Below, one piece after another: positions 277-59,687 of a DNA stretch of 64,000 nucleotides (its first letter is position 1; each line of letters begins with the position of its first letter). The stretch comes from a virus, in the IMG/VR virus record IMGVR_UViG_3300024339_000005; one strand, written 5' to 3'. The notes beneath the pieces are model-generated. The model searched no databases. It saw only the letters and a list, made by a program, of their open reading frames with translations, and was not told the origin of the DNA. Both the position numbers and the translations under genes were made by a program.

Positions 277-351
277 TGGTACTCCCGGCTGGACTTGAAC
301 CAACATCATAACCGTTATGAGCGATAGGCTTTACCGTTAAGCTACGAGAGC
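277..351 (-). tRNA. tRNA CAT (Met or Ile2)
   Basis: Cloverleaf, loop CT-CAT-AA, T-loop TTCAAGT, CCA. Confidence 0.9.
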
Positions 352-356
352 AATCT

Positions 357-432
357 TGGAGCGGCCAGGGAGAATCGAACTCCACTCAGTACGGGTTGGA
401 AACCCGACGACTGATCCCGTCAGCTTGGCCGC
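357..432 (-). tRNA. tRNA-Gly(TCC)
   Basis: Loop TT-TCC-AA, TTCGATT, CCA. Confidence 0.9.
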
Positions 433-435
433 AAT

Positions 436-509
436 TGGTGCCGCTACGAGGAATCGAACCCCGAAATTCTGATTACAAAACAGACATTATGCCATTTAAT
501 TATAGCGGC
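436..509 (-). tRNA. tRNA-Thr(TGT)
   Basis: Loop TT-TGT-AA, CCA. Confidence 0.92.
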
Positions 510-517
510 GTTATTTC

Positions 518-772
518 TTATTTCTCGGCTGGTCCTTCAATTGCGTTGATAACTTGTTCAACAGGATCAAACCCCGCTTCAATCGCAGCGGCTTCGGCAA
601 TTAGGTCTTGACCTTTATCACCAAATACTTTTTGTGGTGCGAGCCAGCGAATGCTTCTTGCAAGACGGGTAGGGCATTTTGTAATTACGCCACCGTTTGC
701 TAGGAATTCGGCTGTCAGTCTTTCAATTTCTTTTCGTTGTTGAATTTTCTCAATTGAAGGCGATACCATCAT
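518..772 (-). CDS. small protein with SutA-like RNAP-binding motif
   Basis: AEFLANGGVITK resembles the SutA segment EEFLARGGKVQ; own promoter. Confidence 0.5.
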   Translation of the reverse strand: MMVSPSIEKIQQRKEIERLTAEFLANGGVITKCPTRLARSIRWLAPQKVFGDKGQDLIAEAAAIEAGFDPVEQVINAIEGPAEK

Positions 773-801
773 TGTCTCTCTCCGATGTTTCAGTATTTAT
801 T

Positions 802-831
802 GATCATAGTCTATTTGGGTCGAAATGTCAA
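802..831 (-). promoter_or_regulatory. sigma70-type early promoter
   Basis: TTGACA-17-TATGAT(C). Confidence 0.8.
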
Positions 832-837
832 TACTTT

Positions 838-1119
838 TTATCCGCCCATATAAATCTGGTCAAGCATTTCTTTGAAGGCAGATACCTTTTCAACACGATT
901 GGGCCACAAGATATATTCCTTTTCAGGGTTTTCACAGAGGTTCCGCAAGAGTGGTTGAATGGCATTATACAAATTATTCAACTTCTCGTCGGTCTCCTCT
1001 AAATCAAGTTGTGTTTCTGAGGCAGCCAGCGTCGCTGTTTCCGAGGCTGCGACCGCTTCTGTTACTACGGTCAGGTCATCGCCATCAACGAGTGAAAAAC
1101 CAAAATCAAATTCTTCCAT
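838..1119 (-). CDS. T4-like hypothetical protein
   Basis: FDFGFS N-terminus and NPEKEYILWPNR motif. Confidence 0.75.
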   Translation of the reverse strand: MEEFDFGFSLVDGDDLTVVTEAVAASETATLAASETQLDLEETDEKLNNLYNAIQPLLRNLCENPEKEYILWPNRVEKVSAFKEMLDQIYMGG

Positions 1120-1320
1120 CTAAATCTCCAAGTCTATTTTGTTGCCCATGTGGTCATACTTAGGCAATTTCTTTTCGTCTTTATTTATGTCATCAGGTGG
1201 CGTAGGTGGTTCGACTTTCCGCCTTTGCTCAATCCTTTCGTCATATTCAAATGTTGATCTTGTTTTGGCTAATTTCATTGTCTCTCTCAAATTGGTTACG
1301 ACAGGCACCGTCGCGCCCAT
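1120..1320 (-). CDS. hypothetical protein
   Basis: ORF abuts the next gene. Confidence 0.5.
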   Translation of the reverse strand: MGATVPVVTNLRETMKLAKTRSTFEYDERIEQRRKVEPPTPPDDINKDEKKLPKYDHMGNKIDLEI

Positions 1321-1364
1321 CGTCTTAGTATATCCTGCTCTTGGACCTACAGATATACCGTTAT

Positions 1365-1438
1365 TGGTGCCACTAGATAGAATCGAACTATCATCTATCC
1401 CGTACCAGGGGATTGCATTGCCATTGTGCTATAGCGGC
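1365..1438 (-). tRNA. tRNA-Thr(GGT)
   Basis: Loop CT-GGT-AC, CCA. Confidence 0.9.
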
Positions 1439-1761
1439 AGTAATTCTTGTGGTAAGTCGACCATATCAATCAATGTGATTTTATCGCCGTACAGACCTTG
1501 TATTTTATCCCATATCCCAGCCTGCGCCATTGACATTCTTTCAGCGCCAACATGACATTTATAAATGCTACCCGAATGACCGTGGAATAAATAACAATCA
1601 TCTTCTTCAAGGTAACTTGTGTAGGCGATACCAGAATTGATTCTCCATGAATCGCCGTCGAGATATCCACCACTCCAACCACCAAGAACTTTGTAAAGAA
1701 CCTCGTCGTCGTCGTTTTCAATCCGCATAATTTTCCAGTGGTGCGGGTAATATTCAGTCAT
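1429..1761 (-). CDS. conserved phage hypothetical protein
   Basis: YKVLGGWSGGYLDGDSWRINSGI; stop codon lies inside tRNA-Thr. Confidence 0.8.
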   Translation of the reverse strand: MTEYYPHHWKIMRIENDDDEVLYKVLGGWSGGYLDGDSWRINSGIAYTSYLEEDDCYLFHGHSGSIYKCHVGAERMSMAQAGIWDKIQGLYGDKITLIDMVDLPQELLPL

Positions 1762-2140
1762 TTTCGGCCTCCGATTTTTCTTTCCAGCCTGTATCACATG
1801 ATTTTTTTAAAATCCATATTACCGATAATGGCAACAAGACCAAAGACATTGAAAGAATTTCTGATTGAAAATATGTTAAACCAATTACCATTCCTATCAT
1901 AATAGACGCGCCGGCGACCAGCGGGCCAATCCCGATAACAATAAACGCCAATAAAATGAGAGGAATTGTGACAGCGCGTGCCAGCCATAAGAATAATTTG
2001 TTTCGGCAATATTCAGTTTTTGTTTTTGACTCATCTTCTAAATCAGAAAGATACTGCATAGGTATGGTCAAAAAATTGCCCACAGGTGTTATAAACGTAT
2101 CCACATAATCTTCGTAATCGTCAAATCCAAACATTTTCAT
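1754..2140 (-). CDS. membrane protein
   Basis: Several hydrophobic segments. Confidence 0.65.
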   Translation of the reverse strand: MKMFGFDDYEDYVDTFITPVGNFLTIPMQYLSDLEDESKTKTEYCRNKLFLWLARAVTIPLILLAFIVIGIGPLVAGASIMIGMVIGLTYFQSEILSMSLVLLPLSVIWILKKSCDTGWKEKSEAEND

Positions 2141-2152
2141 TCTCTCTCAAAT

Positions 2153-2237
2153 TGGCGAACCCTGAAGGAGTCGAACCTTATGCCATCCACCCAACTCTAA
2201 GGTCCGGTTTAGAAGACCGGTGTCGGGAACAGGGTCC
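2153..2237 (-). tRNA. non-canonical tRNA-Arg(TCT)-like RNA lacking a D-arm
   Basis: CCGGT-CTTCTAA-ACCGG arm, T-arm and CCA; no D hairpin; long variable region. Confidence 0.75.
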
Positions 2238-2254
2238 TAAAATTTATTCTGTGT

Positions 2255-2501
2255 CAGCCGTTTCAGAAACAACATGATCTTCACGGTGTGCCATTACAGC
2301 AATTTTGTATCGACGGCCAAATTCTTCAATTTTTTCAGCCAGCGCCAATTCAATTTCAGAATCTTCGCTATGCATCCAGCCGTTTCAGAAACAACATGAT
2401 CTTCACGGTGTGCCATTACAGCAATTTTGTATCGACGGCCAAATTCTTCAATTTTTTCAGCCAGCGCCAATTCAATTTCAGAATCTTCGCTATGCATCCA
2501 G
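2255..2501. repeat. 122-bp perfect tandem duplication
   Basis: 2255-2376 equals 2377-2498; CAG microhomology at the junction. Confidence 0.95.
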
Positions 2502-2743
2502 GCATTTTTCAGCCCTTCGCTTTCGATATAGTTAAGCAAGACTTCCTCAAGGTCGAGAGGCGGAACCTCAATCGACATTTGTTCGTCGTCGCCTTGTGCG
2601 GTCATGCAAATATACAGTTTGGGTTTTCCGGCAATGGAATCCATACCGATGGTCGCACTAACATCAAGTTCAAATTTCATAATCAATTCCTTAGTTGGCA
2701 GCCCCGCGTGGATTCGAGCCACGATTTCCTGTGTCAGAGACAA
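2294..2743 (-). CDS. hypothetical protein, C-terminus frameshifted by the duplication
   Basis: Without the duplication it would end ETADTE* near 2245. Confidence 0.6.
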   Translation of the reverse strand: MSLTQEIVARIHAGLPTKELIMKFELDVSATIGMDSIAGKPKLYICMTAQGDDEQMSIEVPPLDLEEVLLNYIESEGLKNAWMHSEDSEIELALAEKIEEFGRRYKIAVMAHREDHVVSETAGCIAKILKLNWRWLKKLKNLAVDTKLL

Positions 2744-2921
2744 GCGTTTTGCCGTTAAACTACAGGGCTAATTTCTAATGCAACAAATTTTCAAGGCTGA
2801 ATAATCAGCCCAAGGACAACAACCACGGCGACCCATAACTTGACTTGAAACATCAGCCAATAGGTATCATGCTCGTTCCATTTCATAATCAAATCTCTCT
2901 TTTGTTTCTCTATCTTAATTT

Positions 2922-2951
2922 GATCTTACGCTATTTTTCGGCAAATGTCAA
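2922..2951 (-). promoter_or_regulatory. sigma70-type early promoter
   Basis: TTGACA-17-TAAGAT(C); near-identical to 10055-10104. Confidence 0.8.
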
Positions 2952-2956
2952 TACTT

Positions 2957-3139
2957 TTAAGCGAGATAATTCATTTGGTCGAGAGGCATTTCGACAATTT
3001 CTGGTGAGTTGATTGGGTAGCGAGTTTTATCACGGGTAGCGAGTGCGTCTTTTGCTGCACCTTCGCTATGGAATACGCCGAAGACATATAAGCCTTCATG
3101 CTTGACATTTTCAGTCAGTAGGAATACGGTGACAGGCAT
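2957..3139 (-). CDS. hypothetical protein
   Basis: AGGAG RBS and upstream promoter. Confidence 0.65.
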   Translation of the reverse strand: MPVTVFLLTENVKHEGLYVFGVFHSEGAAKDALATRDKTRYPINSPEIVEMPLDQMNYLA

Positions 3140-3174
3140 CGGCTAACTCCTTTGTGCGGTATCTCTTATATAGT

Positions 3175-3204
3175 GATCTTCGCACAAAGCAAGGCAAATG
3201 TCAA
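3175..3204 (-). promoter_or_regulatory. sigma70-type promoter
   Basis: TTGACA-17-GAAGAT(C). Confidence 0.6.
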
Positions 3205-3221
3205 GTCTTTTTTTTGAGAAT

Positions 3222-3307
3222 TGGCGGATAGCGGAGTATTCGAAACTCAAACATTTCTGTTCCCTTCGGTTAGCAACCGAGCCTAGAACCTATCTAGTTC
3301 ACTATCC
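3222..3307 (-). tRNA. tRNA-Ser(GCT)
   Basis: Loop TT-GCT-AA, long variable arm, G73-CCA. Confidence 0.9.
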
Positions 3308-3627
3308 ATTTCTCTTTTCTTTACAGCTTTTCGGTATTCTATGTCATGGCGGAGCTTTTCAAGGATATGTTTCAAACCTTTGTTAGCATTACCAGGCATC
3401 TTATGCGTTTCAGAACTTTTGATGATTGTATGAATATCGAAAAAACTGATTTGACCACCAATGGAACATTCTTCAATCAACCCGGCTATTTGCCATGAGG
3501 TTCTACCCCAACAAACACCGCGTTTCTTTTCTTGTCGCAATGATTCATCATTGACCAGATTTTTCACGGCATCAGCATTAAACATAGTTTGCGCTAATTT
3601 TGATTTCGGGTCCATCATAAACTCCAT
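3283..3627 (-). CDS. hypothetical protein
   Basis: 114-aa ORF; stop codon lies inside tRNA-Ser. Confidence 0.6.
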   Translation of the reverse strand: MEFMMDPKSKLAQTMFNADAVKNLVNDESLRQEKKRGVCWGRTSWQIAGLIEECSIGGQISFFDIHTIIKSSETHKMPGNANKGLKHILEKLRHDIEYRKAVKKREMDSELDRF

Positions 3628-3636
3628 AAAAAGTTG

Positions 3637-3714
3637 CCGCAGTCGCGTACCTGCTCCCTTTCGGGTATGCGCCTTAGTGGTGTCTGGGCCTTACTATCGG
3701 AACCCCAAACTGCG
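3637..3714 (-). ncRNA. structured intergenic RNA with SRP helix-8-like hairpin
   Basis: Closing stem GCAGT/ACTGC; CCC-GAAA-GGG-AGCAG. Confidence 0.35.
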
Positions 3715-3722
3715 ATCTCTTA

Positions 3723-4280
3723 TTAAGCGGCTACTTCAACGCCGCCTGTCCATTCACCCAACCATGGTATCCATGATTCGTGGGCCACCTTCAATGGGTA
3801 CATACGACGAAGGTCGAGTAACTTCCAATATGAAGGCGTGTATGGCTTATGCTTTGGCTTCCAACGACCCTTAGGTGCGAAGTCGCTTTTTGCGTTGTTG
3901 CATGTTGCACAACAAGCCACTACGTTATCCCATACGTTGCGACCACCCTTTGATTGTGGGTGAACGTGGTCAACGGTGATGTTGGTCAAGGTCAGACCCT
4001 TCTCACAGTAGGCGCAGACGCCATGATCTCTGTAGTAAAGGTATTCAGACGTTAGACCAATGATACGTGGGATGTTGGTGTATTGCTTCCGCATGATAAC
4101 AGAAGGCCAAGCCATCTGTAGCGTTGGTGTTTGAATCATTCGGTCGTATTCTTCAACAACAGAACATGTACCATTAACGATTCTTGTCACAGCATCTTCA
4201 GCCGGAATCCATTCCGGTATCGGCAAAAGTTGGATGGGTGTCATATCCGCATTTAATACTAATGTTCTTAAACCAATCAT
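3723..4280 (-). CDS. HNH endonuclease (McrA-like)
   Basis: CAYC...TVDHVHPQSKGG...WDNVVACCATCNNAK. Confidence 0.92.
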   Translation of the reverse strand: MIGLRTLVLNADMTPIQLLPIPEWIPAEDAVTRIVNGTCSVVEEYDRMIQTPTLQMAWPSVIMRKQYTNIPRIIGLTSEYLYYRDHGVCAYCEKGLTLTNITVDHVHPQSKGGRNVWDNVVACCATCNNAKSDFAPKGRWKPKHKPYTPSYWKLLDLRRMYPLKVAHESWIPWLGEWTGGVEVAA

Positions 4281-4310
4281 GATAACCCCCTTTGCCGAAA
4301 TTTCCAGTGT

Positions 4311-4318
4311 TATAAATA
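4311..4318 (+). promoter_or_regulatory. T4-type late promoter
   Basis: TATAAATA upstream of the GIY-YIG remnant. Confidence 0.6.
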
Positions 4319-4378
4319 ATGTTAGTCGCGGTGTATCAAGCACCCACTAACCCTAATGCTTTATGGAGCAATCAGCAT

Positions 4379-4480
4379 ATGACTATTTATTACACCTACA
4401 GAATCACTTCCAAAACTACTGGTCAGCATTATTATGGCGTTCGCTATGCGAAAAATTGCCATCCTCATGGTTGGATTTGA
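4379..4480 (+). pseudogene. truncated GIY-YIG homing endonuclease
   Basis: MTIYYTYRITSKTTGQHYYGVRYAKNCHP, then runs into an antisense tRNA fragment; GGAG RBS. Confidence 0.75.
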
Positions 4481-4502
4481 ACCAACGACCTACGGCTTTC
4501 AA
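4463..4502 (-). pseudogene. tRNA 3'-half remnant
   Basis: GTTGG-TTCAAAT-CCAAC T-arm; no matching 5' acceptor strand, no CCA. Confidence 0.7.
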
Positions 4503-4535
4503 TGCAAAATTAGTGGCTGAAGGTATCCTAAAAAT

Positions 4536-4611
4536 TGGCAGCCCCTGTAGGATTCGAACCCACAACCACCTGACTCAAAATCAGGCGCACTACCAATTGT
4601 GCTAAGGAGCT
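4536..4611 (-). tRNA. tRNA-Gln(TTG)
   Basis: Loop TT-TTG-AG, CCA. Confidence 0.88.
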
Positions 4612-4617
4612 AGAATT

Positions 4618-4693
4618 TGGTGGACCCGGTCAGATTCGAACTGACAACCTTTTCCGTGCAAGGGAAATACACTCCCAATTGTGTTACGGGCCC
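4618..4693 (-). tRNA. tRNA-Ala(TGC)
   Basis: Loop CT-TGC-AC, G3:U70, CCA. Confidence 0.92.
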
Positions 4694-4699
4694 ATGAAT

Positions 4700-4773
4700 T
4701 GGAGCGACCGGTCGGATTCGAACCGACATATTCTTGTTGGCAACAAGAGATTCTACCTTTGAATTACGGCTGC
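4700..4773 (-). tRNA. tRNA-Gly(GCC)
   Basis: Loop TT-GCC-AA, U73-CCA. Confidence 0.92.
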
Positions 4774-4779
4774 ATTGTT

Positions 4780-4857
4780 TGGTACCCATAGTAGGATTCG
4801 AACCTACAAACACAAGTTTTTAAGACTGGCTGCGTTTCCTGGTTAGCATATACGGGC
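4780..4857 (-). tRNA. tRNA-Leu(TAA), short variable arm
   Basis: Loop CT-TAA-AA; 5-nt variable region. Confidence 0.85.
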
Positions 4858-4863
4858 AGAATT

Positions 4864-4939
4864 TGGTACCCATAGGCGGAGTCGAACCCCCAAACACCTG
4901 CTTTTGAAACAGGCCGCTTTGCCATTTGCGTATACGGGC
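4864..4939 (-). tRNA. tRNA-Leu(CAA), short variable arm
   Basis: Loop TT-CAA-AA. Confidence 0.85.
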
Positions 4940-4942
4940 ATA

Positions 4943-5269
4943 TTAAACGCTGAAGGATGAACCGCAACCGCACTGATTTTTGTGCATGGGATTATTGAAC
5001 ACAAATCCCGATTGAAGTAATTCCTCAACATAATCTATCTCTGTCCCGAACAGGAACAATTGAGATTTTGAATCTATCAATACTTTGATGCCATGCTGAT
5101 CTAAAACTTCATCGCCTTCCTCAATCTCGTTTGAGAATTCCATGAAATTTGAAAAGCCAGAACATCCACCCGATTTCACGCCCAAGCGAACAAACAAATA
5201 ATCCTTACCTTCTAGTAGGGATTTCATTCGGGTAGCGGCGTTCTCGGTTATCGTTGCTATGTCATTCAT
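4943..5269 (-). CDS. iscA: A-type Fe-S cluster carrier (IscA/HesB family)
   Basis: GGCSG and CGCGSSF motifs. Confidence 0.95.
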   Translation of the reverse strand: MNDIATITENAATRMKSLLEGKDYLFVRLGVKSGGCSGFSNFMEFSNEIEEGDEVLDQHGIKVLIDSKSQLFLFGTEIDYVEELLQSGFVFNNPMHKNQCGCGSSFSV

Positions 5270-5274
5270 ATTGG

Positions 5275-5282
5275 TATTTATA
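5275..5282 (-). promoter_or_regulatory. T4-type late promoter
   Basis: TATAAATA just upstream of iscA. Confidence 0.7.
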
Positions 5283-5289
5283 TGTCCTT

Positions 5290-5378
5290 CTTATAAACAT
5301 GCGGGCGTTCTACCATTAAACTAGCCAAGGTTTCCCCGGAGTGGGACTCGAACCCACATTTCCCGCTAACTCTATAAG
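5290..5378 (-). ncRNA. YrlA-like Y RNA (circularly permuted tRNA mimic)
   Basis: T-arm precedes D-arm; acceptor stem closed by a loop; anticodon stem GCGGG/CCCGC extended by CTTATA/TATAAG. Confidence 0.75.
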
Positions 5379-5466
5379 TTCTCCTAAAGCTGATTATCTA
5401 CCGCGTGTAGTCGCGTCCATAGGATAGGCGTGTATTGACGCCTCGTTTTACTTCTGACAAGTATTT

Positions 5467-5542
5467 TGGTGCTAGGAGAGAGATTCGAACTCCCACCGCA
5501 TGGTTCTTCAAACCATCGCTCTACCGTTGGAGCTACCCTAGC
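5467..5542 (-). tRNA. tRNA-Phe(GAA)
   Basis: Loop TT-GAA-GA, CCA. Confidence 0.9.
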
Positions 5543-6111
5543 GAATATTTTTCAAAATCTAAGTCTTCAATAATCAATATATTTTTATCTTTATGTTGTT
5601 TTTGAACTTCAATCATTTTTTCTTTATCGTTGCCCCACCAATATCCTTTTATTTCTATGAATAAATTTAATTCGGGTAAGAAAAAATCTGGAGTATAATG
5701 TTTTTCTTTATCTTTTATTGTATATTTCCAAGGCTTACACCGTTCCCATTCAATTTTTCTTTCTTCTAAAAACATAGCAAACTTTTGCTCCCATGTTCCT
5801 TGAACTTTTTTACCGGCGACTGTAAACCATTTAGAACGTCCGCCGCGATTATTTGTGGATTGAATTATTGATAGTCGTTTGTTCGCTTCGTCGTTGGGCC
5901 TATTAGGACCATATTTTTCCAAAGCAAGTTTTCCAGCTTCGCTTAAAGTTCTTGCCACAATAAAACCAAGTCTATTTGCTCTCATATGGTCACTTTGAGT
6001 CAAAGGCGAGACAGACGAGATTTCTCTCATAGATTTTCCCTGGTTGTAAAGAACAGCATAACGCTTTGCCCTTTCAATCCATTTTGTTTGTTCATCATAT
6101 TTTAATTTCAT
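5533..6111 (-). CDS. PD-(D/E)XK putative homing endonuclease
   Basis: WEQKFA...YTPDFFLP...FIEIKGYW; AT-rich insert in the tRNA array. Confidence 0.85.
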   Translation of the reverse strand: MKLKYDEQTKWIERAKRYAVLYNQGKSMREISSVSPLTQSDHMRANRLGFIVARTLSEAGKLALEKYGPNRPNDEANKRLSIIQSTNNRGGRSKWFTVAGKKVQGTWEQKFAMFLEERKIEWERCKPWKYTIKDKEKHYTPDFFLPELNLFIEIKGYWWGNDKEKMIEVQKQHKDKNILIIEDLDFEKYSLG

Positions 6112-6116
6112 ACAAG

Positions 6117-6124
6117 TATTTATA
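6117..6124 (-). promoter_or_regulatory. T4-type late promoter
   Basis: TATAAATA immediately before the endonuclease ATG. Confidence 0.75.
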
Positions 6125-6134
6125 TAAAACAGAA

Positions 6135-6174
6135 ATTACAAACCGGCGCATTAACCATAACTGCCTACAATGCA
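6135..6174 (-). pseudogene. tRNA 5'-half remnant cut in the anticodon loop
   Basis: GCATTG-TA-D arm-CCGGT-TTGT, followed by the endonuclease cassette. Confidence 0.6.
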
Positions 6175-6177
6175 AAT

Positions 6178-6252
6178 TGGTCGGAAACCCCGGAGTCGAA
6201 CCGGGTATTGCCTGCTCCCAAAGCAGGAGGATTACCGTCTTCCTCGTTTCCG
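6178..6252 (-). tRNA. tRNA-Pro(TGG)
   Basis: Loop TT-TGG-GA, CCA. Confidence 0.92.
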
Positions 6253-6258
6253 TTGATT

Positions 6259-6335
6259 TGGTACCCCTGGAGAGACTCGAACTCCCAACACCTCGGACCT
6301 AAACCGAGTGACTCTTCCAATTGGCCTACAGGGGC
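6259..6335 (-). tRNA. tRNA-Leu(TAG), short variable arm
   Basis: Loop TT-TAG-GT. Confidence 0.88.
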
Positions 6336-6342
6336 ATATGTT

Positions 6343-6429
6343 TGGTTGCGGAAACCCGATTTGAACGAGTGTCGTGAAGGTTATGAGCCTACCGCTGGGG
6401 CCTGATTACCACTCCAGCATCATTCCGCA
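6343..6429 (-). tRNA. tRNA-Met(CAT), initiator-like acceptor end, enlarged D-arm
   Basis: GCGG...CCGCAACCA; loop CT-CAT-AA. Confidence 0.8.
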
Positions 6430-6452
6430 TCATGTTGTATTTAGTTCTTGGT

Positions 6453-6523
6453 TGGTGCCGGAGCTAGGAATCGAACCTAGAACATATTCCGTATGAGAGA
6501 ATAGTGAATCCAATTCCACCGAC
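6453..6523 (-). tRNA. tRNA CAT with reduced D-arm
   Basis: Loop CT-CAT-AC, T-arm, CCA; about 71 nt. Confidence 0.75.
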
Positions 6524-6526
6524 ATA

Positions 6527-6795
6527 ATAGCTTCGGTCACTTTCGCAGACCGACAACGGATAGTTATTCAGGTGGTTCCCTTTTTTTGTATTGTCCATGG
6601 CTCATCAGGAAATCGTTATTCACTATCGACCCTAGAGGGATTAACCACCGTGGCCCGTTTTCTTAAATTGGCTTTGCGAGGTGTTCATTTAAGACCGACT
6701 ACTTTTGCGTTTCGAACCGCGCTTTCGTCACCCATACCCCGGCTCATTTCGCCGGTACTTTATCACTCGGGAGCTACCCGGGATTATTAAGCTAT
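6527..6795 (-). ncRNA. about 270-nt structured ncRNA of unknown family
   Basis: Terminal stem ATAGCTT/AAGCTAT, several internal hairpins, no credible ORF, flanked by tRNAs. Confidence 0.55.
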
Positions 6796-6803
6796 CGCAA
6801 ACT

Positions 6804-6881
6804 TGGCGATCTGGAAGGGACTCAAACCCTCATACACCCGGGAGACAACCGAGGACATTAGTTCATTTATGATACCAGACC
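6804..6881 (-). tRNA. tRNA-Asp(GTC)
   Basis: Loop TT-GTC-TC, G73-CCA. Confidence 0.88.
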
Positions 6882-6890
6882 ATGATTTTT

Positions 6891-6919
6891 GGGGACAGTT
6901 TAAAGACTTGCCCTGGTCT
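6891..6919 (-). ncRNA. small H-type pseudoknot
   Basis: AGAC-CAGGGCAA-GTCT-TTAAAC-TGTCCCC. Confidence 0.45.
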
Positions 6920-6953
6920 GTATTTGGACGGATTTTGCTCCGCCGGGCGTGTT

Positions 6954-7027
6954 TGGTACCCGCAGGAAGAATCGAACTTCCATATTTCGGTTATCAGCCG
7001 AATGTTCTACCGTTGAGCTATACGGGC
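6954..7027 (-). tRNA. tRNA-Ile(GAT)
   Basis: Loop CT-GAT-AA, CCA. Confidence 0.92.
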
Positions 7028-7032
7028 ATAAT

Positions 7033-7106
7033 TGGCGAAGGTGCGAGGAATCGAACCCCGGTCCGCAGGTTTGGAATCTGCTATTCTACCACTGAAATAC
7101 ACCAAC
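7033..7106 (-). tRNA. tRNA-Trp(CCA)
   Basis: Loop TT-CCA-AA; U.U mismatches at 2:71 and 3:70. Confidence 0.85.
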
Positions 7107-7112
7107 ATAAAT

Positions 7113-7187
7113 TGGCGAAGGTGAGAGGAATCGAACCCCCGACGCTCGGTTTTGGAGACCGACGCTCTACCACTGAGCTACACCAAC
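7113..7187 (-). tRNA. tRNA-Trp(CCA), second copy
   Basis: Loop CT-CCA-AA; same U.U mismatches. Confidence 0.85.
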
Positions 7188-7193
7188 ATGAAT

Positions 7194-7288
7194 TAGTTAT
7201 CCCCTTCGGAATCGAACCCACATCGCTCTCTAATCTGGAGACTGTGCGGTTTATAAAACCGGTGTTTTACCGTTAAACTATAGGGGTA
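7194..7288 (-). tRNA. tRNA with TAT anticodon and long variable arm; degenerate 3' end
   Basis: CCGGT-TT-TAT-AA-ACCGC; no CCA. Confidence 0.6.
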
Positions 7289-7292
7289 TTAT

Positions 7293-7363
7293 TGGTGGCT
7301 TGGAGGGAGTTTCACCCTATCTTTTCCCTTATTAGGGGACTGCTTTGATTAAGCTACCGCGCC
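7293..7363 (-). tRNA. atypical tRNA with AAT (Ile) anticodon
   Basis: Loop CT-AAT-AA; T-loop TGAAACT; A73-CCA; two acceptor mismatches. Confidence 0.6.
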
Positions 7364-7977
7364 ATAGTTCGACCTTTGCGCCATCCTTCTGGAATAACAT
7401 CGGTCTTTTTGATCTTCTTGGTTTCTTGGTTGTTTGTTATCCACATGGAACCGAACTGGGAACTTTGTTCACCTGTGTTTCTTCCTTTAAGGCATTTACT
7501 TATCTTCTTTTTAGTATCTTCTGTATGTTTTTTGCCTTTGAAATTATTATATTTTGCCAAGCCGTCTATATGAACATTAGCAAAATTTATTTTTGATGTT
7601 CTATGTCCCGCGGCCACTCTGGATGGATGATTTTTGACTTGACCAGAATTTCGTTTATGAAAGTTTTCAGACTTCGACCAATATTCTCTATTGAGATATG
7701 ACCAGCCACCATGACCACCAGAACATAAATTATAGGTGTCTTCTCGTTGGCAAAATTCTTCTGTAACCAGTTCCGCTTCCTTGGCATTCATTTCTTGTTC
7801 GGTATCAAATACATGAAGGATTTTCTTTTCAAGGACTTCTTTACCATGTTTTTCGATAACTCGTCTTATGAGTTTACCAGAACCCATATAGCCATCATCC
7901 AATTTTTTTGTTTGATGTTTACCGATATAGATTTTACCGGTTCTGGTATCGGTCGTTTGATAGATCGTATAGAACAT
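7354..7977 (-). CDS. GIY-YIG homing endonuclease (Seg-like, NUMOD3)
   Basis: TIYQTT...IYIGKH...YMGSG; GKKHTEDTKKKIS. Confidence 0.92.
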   Translation of the reverse strand: MFYTIYQTTDTRTGKIYIGKHQTKKLDDGYMGSGKLIRRVIEKHGKEVLEKKILHVFDTEQEMNAKEAELVTEEFCQREDTYNLCSGGHGGWSYLNREYWSKSENFHKRNSGQVKNHPSRVAAGHRTSKINFANVHIDGLAKYNNFKGKKHTEDTKKKISKCLKGRNTGEQSSQFGSMWITNNQETKKIKKTDVIPEGWRKGRTMAR

Positions 7978-7982
7978 AAGAT

Positions 7983-8031
7983 ACCTCGTTTGTCTAATAG
8001 TCTTACATATGGCTATTTAGACAAACGAGGT
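7983..8031 (-). promoter_or_regulatory. RBS-sequestering hairpin with embedded late promoter
   Basis: 15-bp inverted repeat covering GAGG; TCTAAATA at 8014-8021. Confidence 0.8.
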
Positions 8032-8040
8032 TCTCTATGT

Positions 8041-8113
8041 CGACCCGACGAGACTCAAACTCGCATTATCCACATTGAAAGTGTGGTTTCCTATTTCATT
8101 TAGAAGACGGGTC
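8041..8113 (-). tRNA. tRNA-Glu(TTC), no encoded CCA
   Basis: Loop CT-TTC-AA. Confidence 0.85.
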
Positions 8114-8118
8114 GGTAT

Positions 8119-8206
8119 TGGAGGAGAACAATGTAATCGAAACATCGGGGCTACTAACCACCGGCACGGTATTCAACACCGCTTTGCCACCTTGGCGCTG
8201 CTCTCC
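8119..8206 (-). tRNA. tRNA-Ser(TGA)
   Basis: Loop GT-TGA-AT, long variable arm, CCA. Confidence 0.82.
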
Positions 8207-8213
8207 ATGAATT

Positions 8214-8290
8214 TGGCTCCTGTGACACGGCTCGAACGTGTAACTTCCGGCTTAACAGGCCGACTCCCCTCCCAATAGGGACCCACAGGA
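8214..8290 (-). tRNA. tRNA-Asn(GTT)
   Basis: Loop CT-GTT-AA, G73-CCA. Confidence 0.9.
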
Positions 8291-8298
8291 AAAAACTT

Positions 8299-8375
8299 TG
8301 GTACCCGGGATAGGATTCGAACCTACATAAATCACACCGTGTAAAGGTGCTGCTTCCCCATCAAGCCAACCGGGC
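8299..8375 (-). tRNA. tRNA-Val(TAC)
   Basis: Loop TT-TAC-AC, CCA. Confidence 0.88.
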
Positions 8376-8381
8376 AAAGTG

Positions 8382-8473
8382 TTTGTTATTACTACCGCCT
8401 ACTAGCATTTTGTTGGATACCGCACCATCGGCGTCCAGAATGTTGGTGCCTAGTAGACAGTAGAAATAACAAA
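8382..8473 (-). ncRNA. long imperfect hairpin RNA
   Basis: TTTGTTATT/AATAACAAA and CTACTGTCTACTAG/CTAGTAGGCGGTAG; G.U pairs favour the minus strand. Confidence 0.55.
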
Positions 8474-8552
8474 TTTATCACAAACATTGCGCGACTGGAG
8501 GCAGGCGAAATCCTCTGGCTACCACACGTCCCTTGTGGATGGTCGCTAACTT

Positions 8553-8631
8553 TGGAGGATACGGAGGGAATCAAACCCTCGAATACACGGTTTAAGAGAC
8601 CGTTGGTATAGTCACCACTACCTTCGTATCC
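8553..8631 (-). tRNA. tRNA-Lys(CTT)
   Basis: Loop CT-CTT-AA, CCA. Confidence 0.85.
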
Positions 8632-8640
8632 ATATATGTG

Positions 8641-8704
8641 CTGTAATCCTTGTTGTTTATTCGCTATTATTTTATAATAGTTCGATATTCAACAAGGATT
8701 ACAG
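8641..8704. repeat. inverted repeat with 15-bp perfect arms
   Basis: CTGTAATCCTTGTTG...CAACAAGGATTACAG. Confidence 0.85.
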
Positions 8705-8706
8705 AA

Positions 8707-8784
8707 TGAGGACCGCCTGGGAATCGAACCCAGATCTAACAAACTTAAAAGGATTGCCCTATAGCCACTACTAGGAAGCGGTCC
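8707..8784 (-). tRNA. tRNA-Lys(TTT)
   Basis: Loop CT-TTT-AA; no CCA. Confidence 0.8.
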
Positions 8785-8866
8785 ATTAATTTTTGGGGCG
8801 GGAGGTTTAATGCACCGTTCCCCGTAAGTGCAACGTTTGAAGCTAGGCCACAACGCCATCTCTTTT

Positions 8867-8940
8867 TGGGGCGGAGCCGGGAATCGAACCCTGGTCTCTT
8901 GATTCACAGTCAAGAATTCTGCCACTGAACTAGCAACGCC
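8867..8940 (-). tRNA. tRNA-His(GTG)
   Basis: Loop CT-GTG-AA; G-1:C73; acceptor mismatches. Confidence 0.85.
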
Positions 8941-8950
8941 ATATTTGAAT

Positions 8951-9027
8951 TGGGGCTTCTGACAGGATTCGAACCTGCATTATGTCTCCTTCGTAGGGAG
9001 GTGCCAAATCCATTTGACTACAGAAGC
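8951..9027 (-). tRNA. tRNA-Arg(ACG)
   Basis: Loop CT-ACG-AA. Confidence 0.9.
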
Positions 9028-9032
9028 ATGAT

Positions 9033-9117
9033 TGGTGCATCGGGAAGGAATCGAACCTTCAAAGTAAAAAACGGGAGATTTACAGTCTCTTAGGCTCACC
9101 ACCTGCCTAACCAATGC
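9033..9117 (-). tRNA. tRNA-Tyr(GTA)
   Basis: Loop CT-GTA-AA, long variable arm. Confidence 0.9.
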
Positions 9118-9125
9118 ATATAAAA

Positions 9126-9227
9126 TAAACGCTAGAACGGAATCGAACCGTTTCTATTCCCAACTTTACACCAGTAGCCTACACATTCCCTTGGGAAAGT
9201 TTTGTTGTGTAGAACATCAAGCGTTTA
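9126..9227 (-). ncRNA. tRNA-like RNA with greatly enlarged D-arm, no CCA
   Basis: TAAACGCT/AGCGTTTA closing stem; AACGG-TTCGATT-CCGTT T-arm; CTACACA/TGTGTAG arm. Confidence 0.55.
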
Positions 9228-9385
9228 TAAAAAGGGGGAACTCGACGCTTCGCCAAAAGCGGAATTCAACCCAGTAATTTTCAGAGAAAGGGGAGTTGAA
9301 CCCCTTTGATAGAAATTAGTTCGGTGTCGACCCCTTACTAACTTCCGAAACATTCAAGTTTCTTAACACGCCCGCACCCTTAATT

Positions 9386-9486
9386 TGGCAGCCATAACAG
9401 GAATCGAACCTGTATTCGGTATTCGCAAGATATACCGGACTTTCTTACTTGCGGCTTAAAAGTCAGCCCCCAATGGGCATAGGCTA
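9386..9486 (-). tRNA. non-canonical tRNA-like RNA, anticodon unclear
   Basis: T-arm, G73-CCA, long variable arm, elongated anticodon arm, irregular acceptor stem. Confidence 0.55.
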
Positions 9487-9491
9487 TAATT

Positions 9492-9567
9492 TGGAGAGCA
9501 TGGTCGGAATCGAACCGACTTCAATTTCGCTTTGCAGGCGAAGACCTTACCATTCGGCATCACGCTC
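9492..9567 (-). tRNA. tRNA-Cys(GCA)
   Basis: Loop CT-GCA-AA, U73-CCA. Confidence 0.9.
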
Positions 9568-9571
9568 ATTG

Positions 9572-9776
9572 TAAACAGTTTTGAAGAAAGGTGATCCGGG
9601 GCTCCGCACCCTCCATATGTCTAGTAATTACTCTCCGCCGTTTGCAACCGACTTTGAATTCTAATCATATGCCCTCTAGTGACCCTCATATGTAAACCTC
9701 TGGAAACATACTTGTTACGGACTCTAGCAGTTTATTCCTCGTAGATTGTGGAACCACATTTCATCAAAAATGTTTA
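9572..9776 (-). ncRNA. about 200-nt RNA with long terminal stem (6S-like size)
   Basis: TAAACATTTTTGATGAAATGTGGTTCC pairs with GGATCACCTTTCTTCAAAACTGTTTA. Confidence 0.55.
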
Positions 9777-10074
9777 TTTAACCAATTCTCTGCTATCGGT
9801 GTCCACATCAAAGATGCTTCGTTGCCCTCCAGACAGGCCCTACCTCACTCACAGCCGCAGGTCGCTGTACTCGTTTACTTCTGGGTTTTTTACGTCTTTG
9901 CTGACTGCTACATGAAACCCCAGGATTCTGATTTCATAATCGTTCTCTATTTATTTTCTGTGTCCATAACTATCAGCCGAACGATTTGCTTCTAGTAGTT
10001 TTAACGGACTAACTCTTGACCAATCTCTTTCGTTCTCTCCTCTAACTCTCTCGTTTGTTTCTCTATCTTAATTT

Positions 10075-10104
10075 GATCATACGCTATTTTTCGGCAAATG
10101 TCAA
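10075..10104 (-). promoter_or_regulatory. sigma70-type promoter at the head of the RNA array
   Basis: TTGACA-17-TATGAT(C). Confidence 0.8.
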
Positions 10105-10122: not shown

Positions 10123-10332
10123 TCAAATAAACTTTTCACAAAAGATTATCGAATTACCAGGAAAAACCAAACTCACATTCTCAAGAAATTCTTCTTCGGT
10201 TCTAGCGGATTTCACGCGAACCCAGTTATTACTCTTTTTTAATCCACCATCATTCCAAACGTCACTCATCAAGGCTGCATCACCAGAGAACCAGGCTCCT
10301 GTTTTTCCGAATTGCGCTACAATCTTTTTCAT
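10123..10332 (-). CDS. small early hypothetical protein
   Basis: Starts after the promoter repeat and its GA-rich RBS. Confidence 0.6.
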   Translation of the reverse strand: MKKIVAQFGKTGAWFSGDAALMSDVWNDGGLKKSNNWVRVKSARTEEEFLENVSLVFPGNSIIFCEKFI

Positions 10333-10335
10333 AAT

Positions 10336-10394
10336 CTCTCTCTTGGTTCTTGATCTTACTATCTGATCATGCACTATTTCTGACCAAATGTCAA
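10336..10394 (-). promoter_or_regulatory. conserved early promoter/leader repeat
   Basis: TTGACA-17-CATGAT-CAGATAGTAAGATC-AGAGAG; 7 copies in the window. Confidence 0.9.
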
Positions 10395-10415: not shown

Positions 10416-10453
10416 AAAAAAAATGCCCCATCCTATATTCTAGGGTGGGGCAT
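10416..10453 (-). terminator. intrinsic terminator (attenuator)
   Basis: ATGCCCCACCCTA-gaata-TAGGATGGGGCAT followed by U7. Confidence 0.9.
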
Positions 10454-10497
10454 GAAAGTTACTACTTTTACTACTTAAACTTTCATCATCCCATCCC
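10443..10497 (-). promoter_or_regulatory. putative antiterminator hairpin
   Basis: GGGATGGGATGATGAAAGTT pairs with AACTTTCATGCCCCACCC, overlapping the terminator 5' arm. Confidence 0.7.
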
Positions 10498-10599
10498 GGT
10501 TCCGCCAATATTATCTTGGCGTTTCGCCCAGGCGCAACTCACCATCGGAAATGATTCCGACAATAGATATGACGTATGGGCGAGTAATATGGAAGTCAT
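10486..10599 (-). CDS. putative 37-aa leader peptide containing all 20 amino acids
   Basis: MTSILLAHTSYLLSESFPMVSCAWAKRQDNIGGTGMG; 32 distinct codons; stop lies in the antiterminator arm. Confidence 0.7.
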   Translation of the reverse strand: MTSILLAHTSYLLSESFPMVSCAWAKRQDNIGGTGMG

Positions 10600-10647
10600 G
10601 GTCTTTTCTTTATTTGTAGCCAGTAACGAAGGCTTGTTGTTCACTTT

Positions 10648-10655
10648 TATTTATA
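10648..10655 (-). promoter_or_regulatory. T4-type late promoter
   Basis: TATAAATA about 50 nt upstream of the leader ORF. Confidence 0.7.
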
Positions 10656-10683: not shown

Positions 10684-10899
10684 TCAACCTTTTTTATCCA
10701 TGATGTAGGGCGCCATGTTCTTGGTTTCGTCTTTACCAAGGCTGGTGTTCTTGCGCTCTTTATGCGCTTCCATCTGGTTCAAAACCCGACGGATAGGATT
10801 CTTGTTAGCAATCCGAACCGACTTCAAGGTCTTCTTCGATACGTTGCGACCGGTACCTTTCGATACCTGCTTGGTGCGCTTGTTCCTTACTGACGACAT
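10684..10899 (-). CDS. small basic protein
   Basis: K/R-rich; AGGAG RBS; promoter at 10925-10954. Confidence 0.7.
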   Translation of the reverse strand: MSSVRNKRTKQVSKGTGRNVSKKTLKSVRIANKNPIRRVLNQMEAHKERKNTSLGKDETKNMAPYIMDKKG

Positions 10900-10961: not shown

Positions 10962-11558
10962 TTAGGCTTCTTCTATATAAACAACACCGATGCCTAGCAT
11001 GGCTGGTTTGTTTTTGAATATCTCCAAACAATCGGCGTCGTGGGTATGGGTCATTTCCTGGTATTCATCCAGAGACTCTGGTCGGTCCATGACTTGCTTC
11101 AGGTCTTTCCAGAATCTATGAACACCGAAGTTGGCGTTTGATATATCATGGATACCGACCATAACATTGGCCATAGGTGAGTATTCGTTCCAATCTTTCA
11201 AAGCCCCGTCGTAACTGTGGTCACCATCAATGTAAACCAAATCGAATGGACCCCGGGCTTCTGCGATTGATTTGATACTCTCGTCATGTGAATTACCAAA
11301 AATCAACTTAACATCATAGCCTTTGGCTGTCAACGCCTTCGCTATATTCTCGAGGCTTTCTTTCGAATCTTCAAAGCCATCTGAGGCGTTCGGCCAATCA
11401 ATCGCTGTAATCTTTGAACCCACGGGCAGGCAATTAGCCATATGCCAAAGGTTCTGCCCATACAGACTACCAATCTCAAGGAGAGAATCGACCTCTTTCT
11501 CCTTGATTAGTTTCTGGAATCTGTCGCTTTCTACCAAGCAGCCGTTATGAGAAATCAT
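10962..11558 (-). CDS. class I SAM methyltransferase (Methyltransf_24-like)
   Basis: LLEIGSLYG; FDLVYIDGDHSY; IHD. Confidence 0.85.
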   Translation of the reverse strand: MISHNGCLVESDRFQKLIKEKEVDSLLEIGSLYGQNLWHMANCLPVGSKITAIDWPNASDGFEDSKESLENIAKALTAKGYDVKLIFGNSHDESIKSIAEARGPFDLVYIDGDHSYDGALKDWNEYSPMANVMVGIHDISNANFGVHRFWKDLKQVMDRPESLDEYQEMTHTHDADCLEIFKNKPAMLGIGVVYIEEA

Positions 11559-11893
11559 CAAGCCACCCGATATTCGTTGTTGCTGAAACCTTCGCGGTCC
11601 TTGCGTTCGGTATTCTTCAGGAACGTATGAACGGTCCATGCGTGGGGTGGATAATCCTCGAGGTAATCACAGATTTTTTCAAGGGCTTTATAGCCAATAT
11701 CAAAACCGATATATTGCCAGACGGGTTCCATGGCTTTGAAGTCTTTCTGGTTGCAGTCCATTGAGATCGAACCAGCGAATTCAATATCTCCCAGGAAATC
11801 ATAAAGATACATTTCCGTAAGAGCCTTGAATTCTTCTGTGTCGTTCACTTCGAACCCGGGCTTGGCTTCAAACATAATTCTAAGATTCATCAT
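11558..11893 (-). CDS. hypothetical protein
   Basis: Coupled ORF. Confidence 0.6.
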   Translation of the reverse strand: MMNLRIMFEAKPGFEVNDTEEFKALTEMYLYDFLGDIEFAGSISMDCNQKDFKAMEPVWQYIGFDIGYKALEKICDYLEDYPPHAWTVHTFLKNTERKDREGFSNNEYRVA

Positions 11894-12481: not shown

Positions 12482-12606
12482 TCAATTTTCAGGTTCTTTC
12501 TGCTATACTTACGTTTCAAAGGTACGACACGCTTGCGGAATAATGGTGACGCAAGAGCCATAGCCATAGCACAACGGCGCTTTGGTATTTTGTTCTTGCG
12601 TTTCAT
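12478..12606 (-). CDS. ArfA-like small basic protein (42 aa)
   Basis: MALASPLFRKRVVPLKRKYSRK versus ArfA [25 protein letters not shown]; fills the intergenic gap; GGAG RBS. Confidence 0.55.
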   Translation of the reverse strand: MKRKNKIPKRRCAMAMALASPLFRKRVVPLKRKYSRKNLKIE

Positions 12607-12609
12607 CGG

Positions 12610-13305
12610 TCACACTCCTATAAGGGCACGGTCTGCTTTTGACAGTTTGGCCAGGACGGCTTTCTTTTTAGCAGCCTGAGCAGTACGGGCGGCGGCAAAT
12701 TCAGCCTCCTGCTTTTTCCACATTGCGCGATCGTTGCGGTCTGCTTCTTTATACATTTCAAGATTGCCCTGGGCAACAGAAATTTCTATCAGCCCGATGT
12801 TATCAGGCAGGGAAGGAACGACCAACATTTCGATGGTGTTGCTAACATGACTCACATGGCCGTTATTGTATTTATTCAGCCACAAAACAGAGACAGACTT
12901 TTTGGAAACTTTAGTAACAACGCCCCACTGACCAGAATAGAAAATTTTGTCGTTTTCTTTTATGACAACGCCAGCGCCGTCTTTCAGGACAGGCATGGCT
13001 TCTTCTTCAGCTTTGACAACCGCGTTTGCGTCAACGATAATAACGTCAGTGGTTTGGGGAACAACATTGACAAGACAGCGATCGAACCATTGTTTGCGCC
13101 CATTGATTTTTGTCAAGAACTGGTCGCGGCGGTTATACACTCGCGTTTCAGTCACTTCAACAACAGACCCAGACCACTTTGTGGTTTGTTTCGCATGATA
13201 CGAATTTGAGTAATAACTGGTGGAAAAGTAGTTTGAAATCTTGACTATCAAGGAGCCCTTTTCGGCGATTTTGGCTGCTGACGCTTTGAATGTTTCTTTT
13301 TTCAT
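12610..13305 (-). CDS. hypothetical protein
   Basis: 231-aa ORF in an early operon. Confidence 0.7.
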   Translation of the reverse strand: MKKETFKASAAKIAEKGSLIVKISNYFSTSYYSNSYHAKQTTKWSGSVVEVTETRVYNRRDQFLTKINGRKQWFDRCLVNVVPQTTDVIIVDANAVVKAEEEAMPVLKDGAGVVIKENDKIFYSGQWGVVTKVSKKSVSVLWLNKYNNGHVSHVSNTIEMLVVPSLPDNIGLIEISVAQGNLEMYKEADRNDRAMWKKQEAEFAAARTAQAAKKKAVLAKLSKADRALIGV

Positions 13306-13687: not shown

Positions 13688-13741
13688 CTCTCTCTGTTGA
13701 TCTTACTATTTGATCATGCACCATTTTCGACCAAATGTCAA
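13688..13741 (-). promoter_or_regulatory. conserved early promoter repeat
   Basis: TTGACA-17-CATGAT(C). Confidence 0.9.
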
Positions 13742-26291: not shown

Positions 26292-26352
26292 TCTCTCCCC
26301 TTGGTTTCTGATCTTACTATCTGATCATGCACCATTTTCGACCAAATGTCAA
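26292..26352 (-). promoter_or_regulatory. conserved early promoter repeat
   Basis: TTGACA-17-CATGAT(C). Confidence 0.9.
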
Positions 26353-38035: not shown

Positions 38036-38089
38036 TCTCTCTAATTGATCTTACTATTTGATCATGCACTATTTCTGACCAAATGTCAA
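38036..38089 (-). promoter_or_regulatory. conserved early promoter repeat
   Basis: TTGACA-17-CATGAT(C). Confidence 0.9.
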
Positions 38090-55926: not shown

Positions 55927-55986
55927 TCTCTCTCTTGGTTTTCGATCTTACTATTTGATCATGCACTATTTCTGACCAAATGTCAA
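55927..55986 (-). promoter_or_regulatory. conserved early promoter repeat
   Basis: TTGACA-17-CATGAT(C). Confidence 0.9.
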
Positions 55987-56000
55987 TACTAAAAATTGAT

Positions 56001-56034
56001 AAAATGCTGCCGGAAGCGAGAAACTTCCGGCAGC
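56001..56034 (-). terminator. intrinsic terminator after cobS
   Basis: GCTGCCGGAAG/CTTCCGGCAGC followed by ATTTT. Confidence 0.8.
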
Positions 56035-56065
56035 GCCCTTCTAGGGAGAGAAATGTAAGAGAGAC

Positions 56066-57283: not shown

Positions 57284-57345
57284 TCTCTCTCTCTTGGTTT
57301 CTGATCTTACTATCTGATCATGCACTATTTTCGACCAAATGTCAA
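57284..57345 (-). promoter_or_regulatory. conserved early promoter repeat
   Basis: TTGACA-17-CATGAT(C). Confidence 0.9.
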
Positions 57346-59630: not shown

Positions 59631-59687
59631 CTCTCTTGGTTCTTGATCTTACTATTTGATCATGCACTATTTCTGACCAAATGTCAA
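59631..59687 (-). promoter_or_regulatory. conserved early promoter repeat
   Basis: TTGACA-17-CATGAT(C). Confidence 0.9.

Follow-up and report, generated by a model that had tools for sequence, protein, structure and literature searches.

The window analysed here, meaning the whole 64,000-nucleotide stretch of IMG/VR record IMGVR_UViG_3300024339_000005, comes from an uncultured T4-like myovirus, a T4-like marine phage whose family-B DNA polymerase shows no more than 48% identity to its Synechococcus phage counterparts. Gene orientation in the window is that of the minus strand, on which all window features given below lie unless the plus strand is named. Ahead of a large 30-tRNA island (277-9567), whose first gene is tRNA-Cys (9567-9492), lies an element (10655-10416) in which a late promoter is followed by a short leader open reading frame (ORF) sampling all 20 amino acids, and then by an intrinsic terminator whose 5' arm has an alternative pairing partner within the leader. 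The element is a candidate ribosome-mediated attenuator of transcription into the tRNA genes, a reading that we weigh here on the anatomy of the locus and on a survey of other phage tRNA arrays.

A T4-type late promoter box TATAAATA (10648-10655) lies 48 nt upstream of the leader ATG. The leader comprises 37 codons and a first UGA (10486-10599; coding part 10599-10489), directly followed by a second UGA, so that the two stop codons occupy 10488-10486 and 10485-10483, and it encodes 20 amino acids through 32 distinct codons. Box, frame and double stop are all placed as in an initial annotation of this DNA made from the sequence. The intrinsic terminator (10416-10453) begins 32 nt after the stop codon and consists of a 5' arm (10453-10441), a 5-nt loop (10440-10436), a 3' arm (10435-10423) and a T run to 10416. 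Its stem had been described as 13 bp; the position holds, and of the 13 stem positions 12 are paired and one is a C.A mismatch. Taken alone the hairpin folds with -19.1 kcal/mol and pair probabilities of ~1.

The last codons of the leader (35-37) contain a G-rich strand, GGGAUGGG (10490-10497), which is a near copy of the terminator 3' arm and forms the 5' strand of an alternative, antiterminator fold. In this fold a duplex of GGG.UGGG (10497-10490) and CCCACCC (10449-10443) stacks on a 9-bp hairpin (10486-10478 / 10460-10452); the duplex energy of the ORF end with the 5' arm is -12.5 kcal/mol. The 9-bp hairpin, here called the spacer hairpin (10452-10486, 17-nt loop), overlaps both stop codons with its 5' strand; it is compatible with the terminator and also makes the apex of the antiterminator. 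Both folds were computed, and until the terminator 3' arm is transcribed no fold is lower in energy than the antiterminator, which bears out the mutually exclusive pairing proposed in the initial annotation. Further upstream the leader itself is folded into an irregular 60-nt hairpin of 23 pairs (10524-10583, codons 6-26), possibly a pause or timing hairpin, and a second hairpin of 6 pairs (10503-10521, codons 27-33). Jointly these reach -39 kcal/mol (z = -5.3) and rank 7 of 1279 among 100-nt segments.

The same build recurs beside tRNA genes of other phages. We surveyed ~175 IMG/VR contigs with tRNA arrays, retrieved by tRNA patterns; the survey thresholds were chosen while analysing and not beforehand, and some of the surveyed loci are related to each other. 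Over 3.4 Mb of strand, a composite scan for an ATG ORF of 20-60 codons, followed at 10-45 nt from its stop by a terminator of -10 kcal/mol or lower and able to form an ORF-end/5'-arm duplex of -9 kcal/mol or lower, gave 100 hits, of which 85 have distinct peptides. The window element is among the hits. Counted as distinct leaders per 100 kb of strand, composites reach 42.9 where a tRNA is no more than 40 nt away, 7.8 at upstream distances of 41-1200 nt and 1.1 in the remaining sequence, and are 39 times denser adjoining tRNA genes than elsewhere. At the background rate, one composite would fall in the 1160 nt that precede an array with P = 0.013, which is independent of the all-20 property (P ~0.003). 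Leader composition also follows that of the tRNAs. At heads with a strong terminator directly adjoining the first tRNA, the leader/tRNA match fraction is 0.313, compared with 0.193 +/- 0.027 when leaders are permuted among heads, and none of 5000 permutations reaches the observed value. For example, contig L195 has an Asn/Thr/Val/Cys-rich leader upstream of Asn, Asn, Val, Val, Cys, Cys, Thr and Thr tRNAs, and the Trp, Pro, Ser and Cys tRNAs of L104, L138, L141 and L162 are preceded by leaders that contain Ser, Cys, Trp and Pro.

A recurring class of leader-ORF and terminator elements thus adjoins phage tRNA genes, with members seen in L104, L138, L141, L162, L156, L158, L170, L176 and L195. 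Their ORFs of 30-54 codons carry a G-rich copy of the terminator 3' arm in the last codons. Stop and terminator hairpin are 20-29 nt apart, with a small spacer hairpin in between, and until the 3' arm has been transcribed the entire region folds as one extended hairpin. Most class leaders are without a Shine-Dalgarno sequence, and the ORF bodies of L156, L176 and L158 are strongly folded (z = -3.2 to -3.7). The window element has precisely this build, its stop falling within the 12-40 nt ahead of a strong terminator that define the class and its final codons copying the 3' arm, and it places an all-20 leader before an island of 17-20 amino-acid types. A low coding score, an absent Shine-Dalgarno sequence and a folded body, which we at first counted against an attenuator, are also seen in the class. 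A literature search found no published account of leader-peptide control of phage tRNA genes.

Two loci are described here in their own right. L195 contains three leader and terminator units (3684-3828, 12566-12716 and ~2740-2840) before three different tRNA sub-arrays, and each unit follows a TATA-rich box directly upstream of the ATG, so these leader mRNAs may be leaderless. In Caulobacter phage phiCbK (L093), the annotated 45-residue gp335 (10758-10895) has a high content of Ser, Leu, Pro and Lys; downstream of it come an annotated terminator (10963-10987) and then two tRNA-Pro, two tRNA-Lys, three tRNA-Leu and two tRNA-Ser. This phage, which is cultured, may carry a leader of the same kind.

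All-20 composite leaders precede large islands in the window, in L156 and in L158, and just one of ~70 other composite leaders is all-20. The L156 leader has 43 codons and lies 12 nt upstream of its island; that of L158 has 47 codons, 40 of them distinct, and lies 450 nt upstream of an island of 30 tRNAs. L158 is itself a T4-like phage, with a DNA polymerase 44% identical to that of the window, and its parts are ordered as in the window: late promoter, leader, terminator, sigma70-like promoters, island. In detail, a perfect TATAAATA stands 11 nt before the ATG of a leader that has no Shine-Dalgarno sequence and a folded ORF body (z = -3.7). The G-rich 3'-arm copy occupies codons 37-40 and is followed by a spacer hairpin, the terminator, three tandem sigma70-like promoters and then the tRNAs. 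A two-tier layout, with unconditional early promoters and a gated late promoter, recurs in the window and L158. Both the L156 and the L158 leader have an intra-ORF hairpin comparable to the 60-nt hairpin of the window. The latter, spanning codons 6-26, showed no stable pairing to the antiterminator strand; in L158, by contrast, segment 1 forms pairs with the G-rich strand. The peptides of the window and L158 have MTSILL in common, with three synonymous codon differences between them, a suggestive hint of relation. The L158 promoter region (5254-5462, minus strand) holds three tandem promoter-like units of TGTACA, 17 nt and TACAAT/TATAAT, each with a small hairpin after it.

Transcription of the window's island is fed from several sources. 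The late box TATAAATA occurs 11 times in the window compared with 2.4 expected, ten of the 11 copies being on the gene (minus) strand, and most copies lie 5-77 nt upstream of long ORFs with good ribosome-binding sites. Two of the boxes (5275-5282 and 6117-6124) are within the tRNA island, each 5 nt upstream of an ORF start, so the island has its own late promoters downstream of the switch. Nearer to the leader, a near-consensus box with one mismatch, TACAAATA (10611-10618), is read from the sequence only, 11 nt upstream of the ATG; it is a possible second, near-leaderless late start, and its spacing matches that of the perfect box of L158. An absent Shine-Dalgarno sequence would limit the dynamic range of the switch unless the late transcript is nearly leaderless.

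The two sigma70-type promoters recorded in the initial annotation downstream of the terminator, at 10394 and 10104, are both copies of an early promoter cassette. The first (10364-10394) comes right after the terminator and drives a 69-codon ORF (10332-10123); the second (10074-10104) is followed by ~500 nt free of ORFs (9568-10067), for which the initial annotation had recorded a rod-like RNA, and then by tRNA-Cys. The cassette spans ~65 nt and comprises TTGACATTTG, 5 nt, AAATAG, ATGATCA, a conserved 5' untranslated region and a GAGAGAGA-type ribosome-binding site. It is present in 10 copies in the window (801-831, 2921-2951, 10074-10104, 10364-10394, 13711-13741, 26322-26352, 38059-38089, 55956-55986, 57315-57345 and 59657-59687), with none expected by chance. 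Four copies lie at or inside the island (10394, 10104, 2951 and 831) and supply tRNAs independently of the leader. Because these early cassettes make tRNAs regardless, the switch would set only the late tRNA supply, in agreement with the earlier caution that the gate may be limited to late or read-through transcripts. The succession of a terminator and an early cassette is seen elsewhere in the window too. At 56001-56100, the most folded 100-nt segment of the minus strand (z = -8.2), two hairpins immediately upstream of early cassette 55986 are probably a double terminator. The cassette was also found twice in a small metagenome contig, L012, which has no genes in common with the window. Homologues of the 69-codon ORF (10123-10332), at 41-53% identity, occur beside different genes in unrelated contigs of marine phages, and the ORF looks like a mobile small gene.

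At its default threshold ARAGORN finds 27 tRNAs covering 19 amino acids in the island. The full set of 20 credited to the island in the initial annotation is reached only with tRNA-Ser, two genes for which (3222-3307 and 8119-8206) emerge with a relaxed ARAGORN threshold. Rfam tRNA matches at 6456-6523 and 7296-7363 are without an ARAGORN call at the default threshold. These two and the relaxed-threshold tRNA-Ser may be atypical tRNAs or tRNA-like RNAs.

From this anatomy and the trp paradigm we infer the following mechanism. Late RNA polymerase would start from one of two boxes, TATAAATA or the near-consensus one 11 nt upstream of the ATG (predicted start sites 10641 and ~10605), and a ribosome would translate the 37-codon frame, sampling 20 amino acids via 32 codons. 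When decoding is smooth, the ribosome would reach the double UGA with the polymerase 35-70 nt ahead and would lie over the G-rich strand together with the 5' half of the spacer hairpin. This would leave the C-rich 5' arm to the 3' arm, and transcription would stop at 10416. If instead the ribosome stalled on any codon, or never loaded, the G-rich strand would capture the 5' arm first and the terminator would be delayed. The read-through polymerase would continue via the 69-codon gene into the tRNA genes; no terminator was found between 10416 and tRNA-Cys. We judge the chances to be evenly balanced that the element is a ribosome-mediated leader-peptide transcription attenuator, one that gates only late or read-through transcription; of the explanations weighed here this is the most likely.

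A number of observations weigh against this attenuator. Of the two predicted states, the terminator is the more stable at equilibrium, by 7.5 kcal/mol (-26.4 vs -18.9), and a shuffle test of 5'-arm sequestration is marginal (P = 0.024 when 50 nt of upstream context are included, 0.27 when 80 nt are). Shine-Dalgarno pairing of the leader is -0.9 kcal/mol, weaker than for 92% of the phage's genes (median -5.6), and the weakness pointed out in the initial annotation is real. In favour of the attenuator, the leader ATG is unpaired within an A-rich stretch. Most class members end 6-24 nt before the first tRNA, whereas the window element does not abut its tRNA by the 40-nt criterion. Its terminator end is separated from the first tRNA by 848 nt spanning two early promoters and one ORF (848 nt is counted from the end of the T run; the survey script counts 855 nt from the hairpin to the next tRNA). 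No internal sub-array of the island has a comparable leader.

The diversity of the frame gives mixed signals. A random 37-codon ATG ORF has all 20 amino acids with P ~0.003-0.005 and, in addition, at least 32 distinct codons with P ~0.0004-0.0007. Against this, 0.45 such diverse ORFs of 30-45 codons are expected per shuffled 64-kb window, and given the peptide, 32 distinct codons are unremarkable (P = 0.12 under uniform synonymous choice). ORF diversity is by itself weak evidence. The only other all-20 diverse ORF of the window (6882-7016, plus strand) is antisense to tRNA genes. Plain all-20 ORFs are not enriched at array heads: 2 of 106 heads have one, while the antisense control yields 2 and shuffles yield 1.6. 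On these counts we rejected a general enrichment of such ORFs.

Conservation does not help the case. No relative with the locus was found, the sole other copy, in contig L001, being identical. A DNA search of GenBank phages with the locus gave nothing, as did scanning IMG/VR for exact patterns of the terminator or the hairpin tip, and a covariance model of the 94-nt core found no paralogue in the window. Nor did the neighbouring genes lead to syntenic relatives. The methyltransferase gene next to the locus gave no relatives in IMG/VR or metagenome contigs apart from its best homologue, on an identical 2.7-kb contig; the next ones are at most 41% identical and in unrelated contexts. Homologues of the 69-codon ORF lie in unrelated phages without the leader, the DNA polymerase search returned just one identical fragment, and 80 RNR relatives (63-78% identical) are without the island and without the neighbouring genes. 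The early cassette pattern led to two small related contigs without the locus and to nothing in prokaryote genomes. As for the class, comparing the leader with those of L156 and L158 gives no significant similarity (P = 0.43, corrected for multiple testing), and the core covariance model finds nothing in L156, L158 or other class loci. As alignment score and covariance model are both negative, we claim a shared design and not homology. Upstream of other tRNA arrays, then, it is the build that recurs; no close relative with the locus came to light. The decoding-sensing attenuator of the initial annotation is partly supported: it keeps its anatomy and the support of the class, namely the 39-fold density, the composition match, the all-20 leaders of L156 and L158 and the part order of L158, while translation and switching of the element itself are putative. 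The methyltransferase gene (10962-11639) has a likely start at an internal ATG (11558), giving 198 residues, as called in an identical ENA contig.

The strongest alternative is a non-coding structured RNA followed by an ordinary terminator. The region would be the folded 3' tail of the transcript of an early 71-codon gene, with the frame, its 20 amino acids and the G-rich complement coincidental; it may also yield a discrete ~225-nt late RNA from TATAAATA, and the terminator would insulate the next early cassette. Codon use in the frame is indeed unlike that of genes, with a log-likelihood of -0.35 per codon that falls below every 37-codon chunk of real genes and below 98.8% of spurious ORFs, and the gene caller left the frame uncalled in the identical contig L001. 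The peptide has no homologue among 5.8 billion proteins or in cultured phages, no Pfam or PHROGs match, no usable Protein Atlas hit and low recognition by a protein language model. The missing Shine-Dalgarno sequence, the rank of the region among the most folded segments of the window, the recurrence of terminator and early cassette and the number of all-20 ORFs in shuffled windows all fit a non-coding RNA as well. Our initial reading was of this kind, a chance ORF in a structured spacer with an attenuator given very little credence, and it was abandoned after the tRNA-array survey. A non-coding RNA needs three coincidences at one place, namely an all-20 frame (P ~0.003-0.005), a terminator that begins 32 nt beyond the stop and a repeat of its 3' arm in the final codons; the composite by itself has P = 0.013. 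It also leaves unexplained why the design recurs next to tRNA genes and at the L158 island, and a low coding score and an absent Shine-Dalgarno sequence are common to class members whose composition matches their tRNAs. We regard this explanation as unlikely, while still deserving real weight. A plus-strand ORF of 106 codons spanning the region looks spurious, with a coding score of 0.01 like other antisense ORFs.

Two further explanations we hold to be improbable. The element could be a former attenuator, uncoupled when early cassettes and a mobile 69-codon gene were inserted between leader and tRNAs, and now working as a terminator only. A mobile insert would fit the homologues that the 69-codon ORF has in marine phage contigs otherwise unrelated to the window, and class members usually abut their tRNA; L158, however, keeps interposed sigma70-like promoters, which suggests a selected layout, and frame, stops and pairings are all intact in the window. 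With similarly slim prospects, the switch could be made of RNA only, the choice between terminator and antiterminator being made by binding of a ligand, protein or tRNA and not by a ribosome. The succession of promoter, ~230-nt folded leader and terminator resembles a riboswitch or T-box layout, and the fold is strong and well defined. Yet no Rfam family matches at E up to 10, including the Trp, His, Leu and Thr leaders and T-box, with sub-threshold matches all driven by the terminator hairpin, and an RNA-only switch leaves unexplained the open frames of 30-54 codons in the class and their tRNA match. Least probable is a late-expressed 37-residue micro-protein with its own function and a terminator that just ends its gene: a late promoter box stands upstream as for other late genes and the ATG is accessible, sitting unpaired in an A-rich stretch, but the codon use is non-coding-like, a Shine-Dalgarno sequence is absent and the protein searches returned no homologue.

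If the element is an attenuator, its leader may be a sensor of overall decoding capacity, in which loss or shortage of almost any tRNA would stall the ribosome and so open late transcription into the replacement tRNA set. We advance this tentatively, as a proposal that has somewhat less than an even chance. A motive in anticodon nucleases of the PrrC type is purely speculative. With the same reserve, the pan-tRNA sensor could be placed as the all-amino-acid extreme of an apparently unpublished class of codon-matched leader attenuators at phage tRNA genes. A sensor of this kind, if true, would bear on how phages regulate their tRNA genes and why some have near-complete sets. It would constitute a direct feedback loop in which tRNAs are made when ribosomes run short, and would tie such islands to tRNA-depleting defences of the host. 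To the class, the present instance adds a T4-like marine phage, a late-promoter context and the two-tier layout.

The established models for such control are the enterobacterial leader-peptide attenuators trpL, hisL, leuL, thrL and pheL and the multivalent ilv leaders, which are the ones represented by the Rfam leader families. Like these, the window element has a short leader ORF and a terminator whose 5' arm is able to pair with a strand at the ORF 3' end; the distance from stop codon to terminator end is ~70 nt in both, and ribosome position is predicted here to choose between folds as it does there. Unlike them, it samples all 20 amino acids with no run of a single codon, its putative targets are tRNAs and not biosynthetic enzymes, it has neither a Shine-Dalgarno sequence nor an Rfam leader match, and promoters lie between switch and target. 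It also has no clear 1:2 anti-antiterminator, and an untranslated leader would therefore read through and not terminate.

A different outcome of attenuation is illustrated by rnTrpL of Sinorhizobium meliloti, where the terminated trp attenuator RNA is reported to be a trans-acting small RNA (10.1101/606483, PMC7968998). By analogy, the terminated leader here could have a second life as a small RNA, which would reconcile the attenuator and small-RNA readings; unlike rnTrpL, the leader RNA has no known target or trans-acting function. The nearest published logic is that of the mycobacterial whiB7 upstream ORF (uORF), in which stalling leads to antitermination and which is activated by depriving cells of many amino acids or by inhibition of tRNAs or synthetases (PMC10274678). 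The coding sequence of that uORF determines what is sensed (PMC10274678). The response to many amino-acid and tRNA limitations is the feature that the window element would share with it. The whiB7 uORF is enriched in alanine and controls a transcription factor, whereas the frame described here is evenly diverse and stands before phage tRNA genes.

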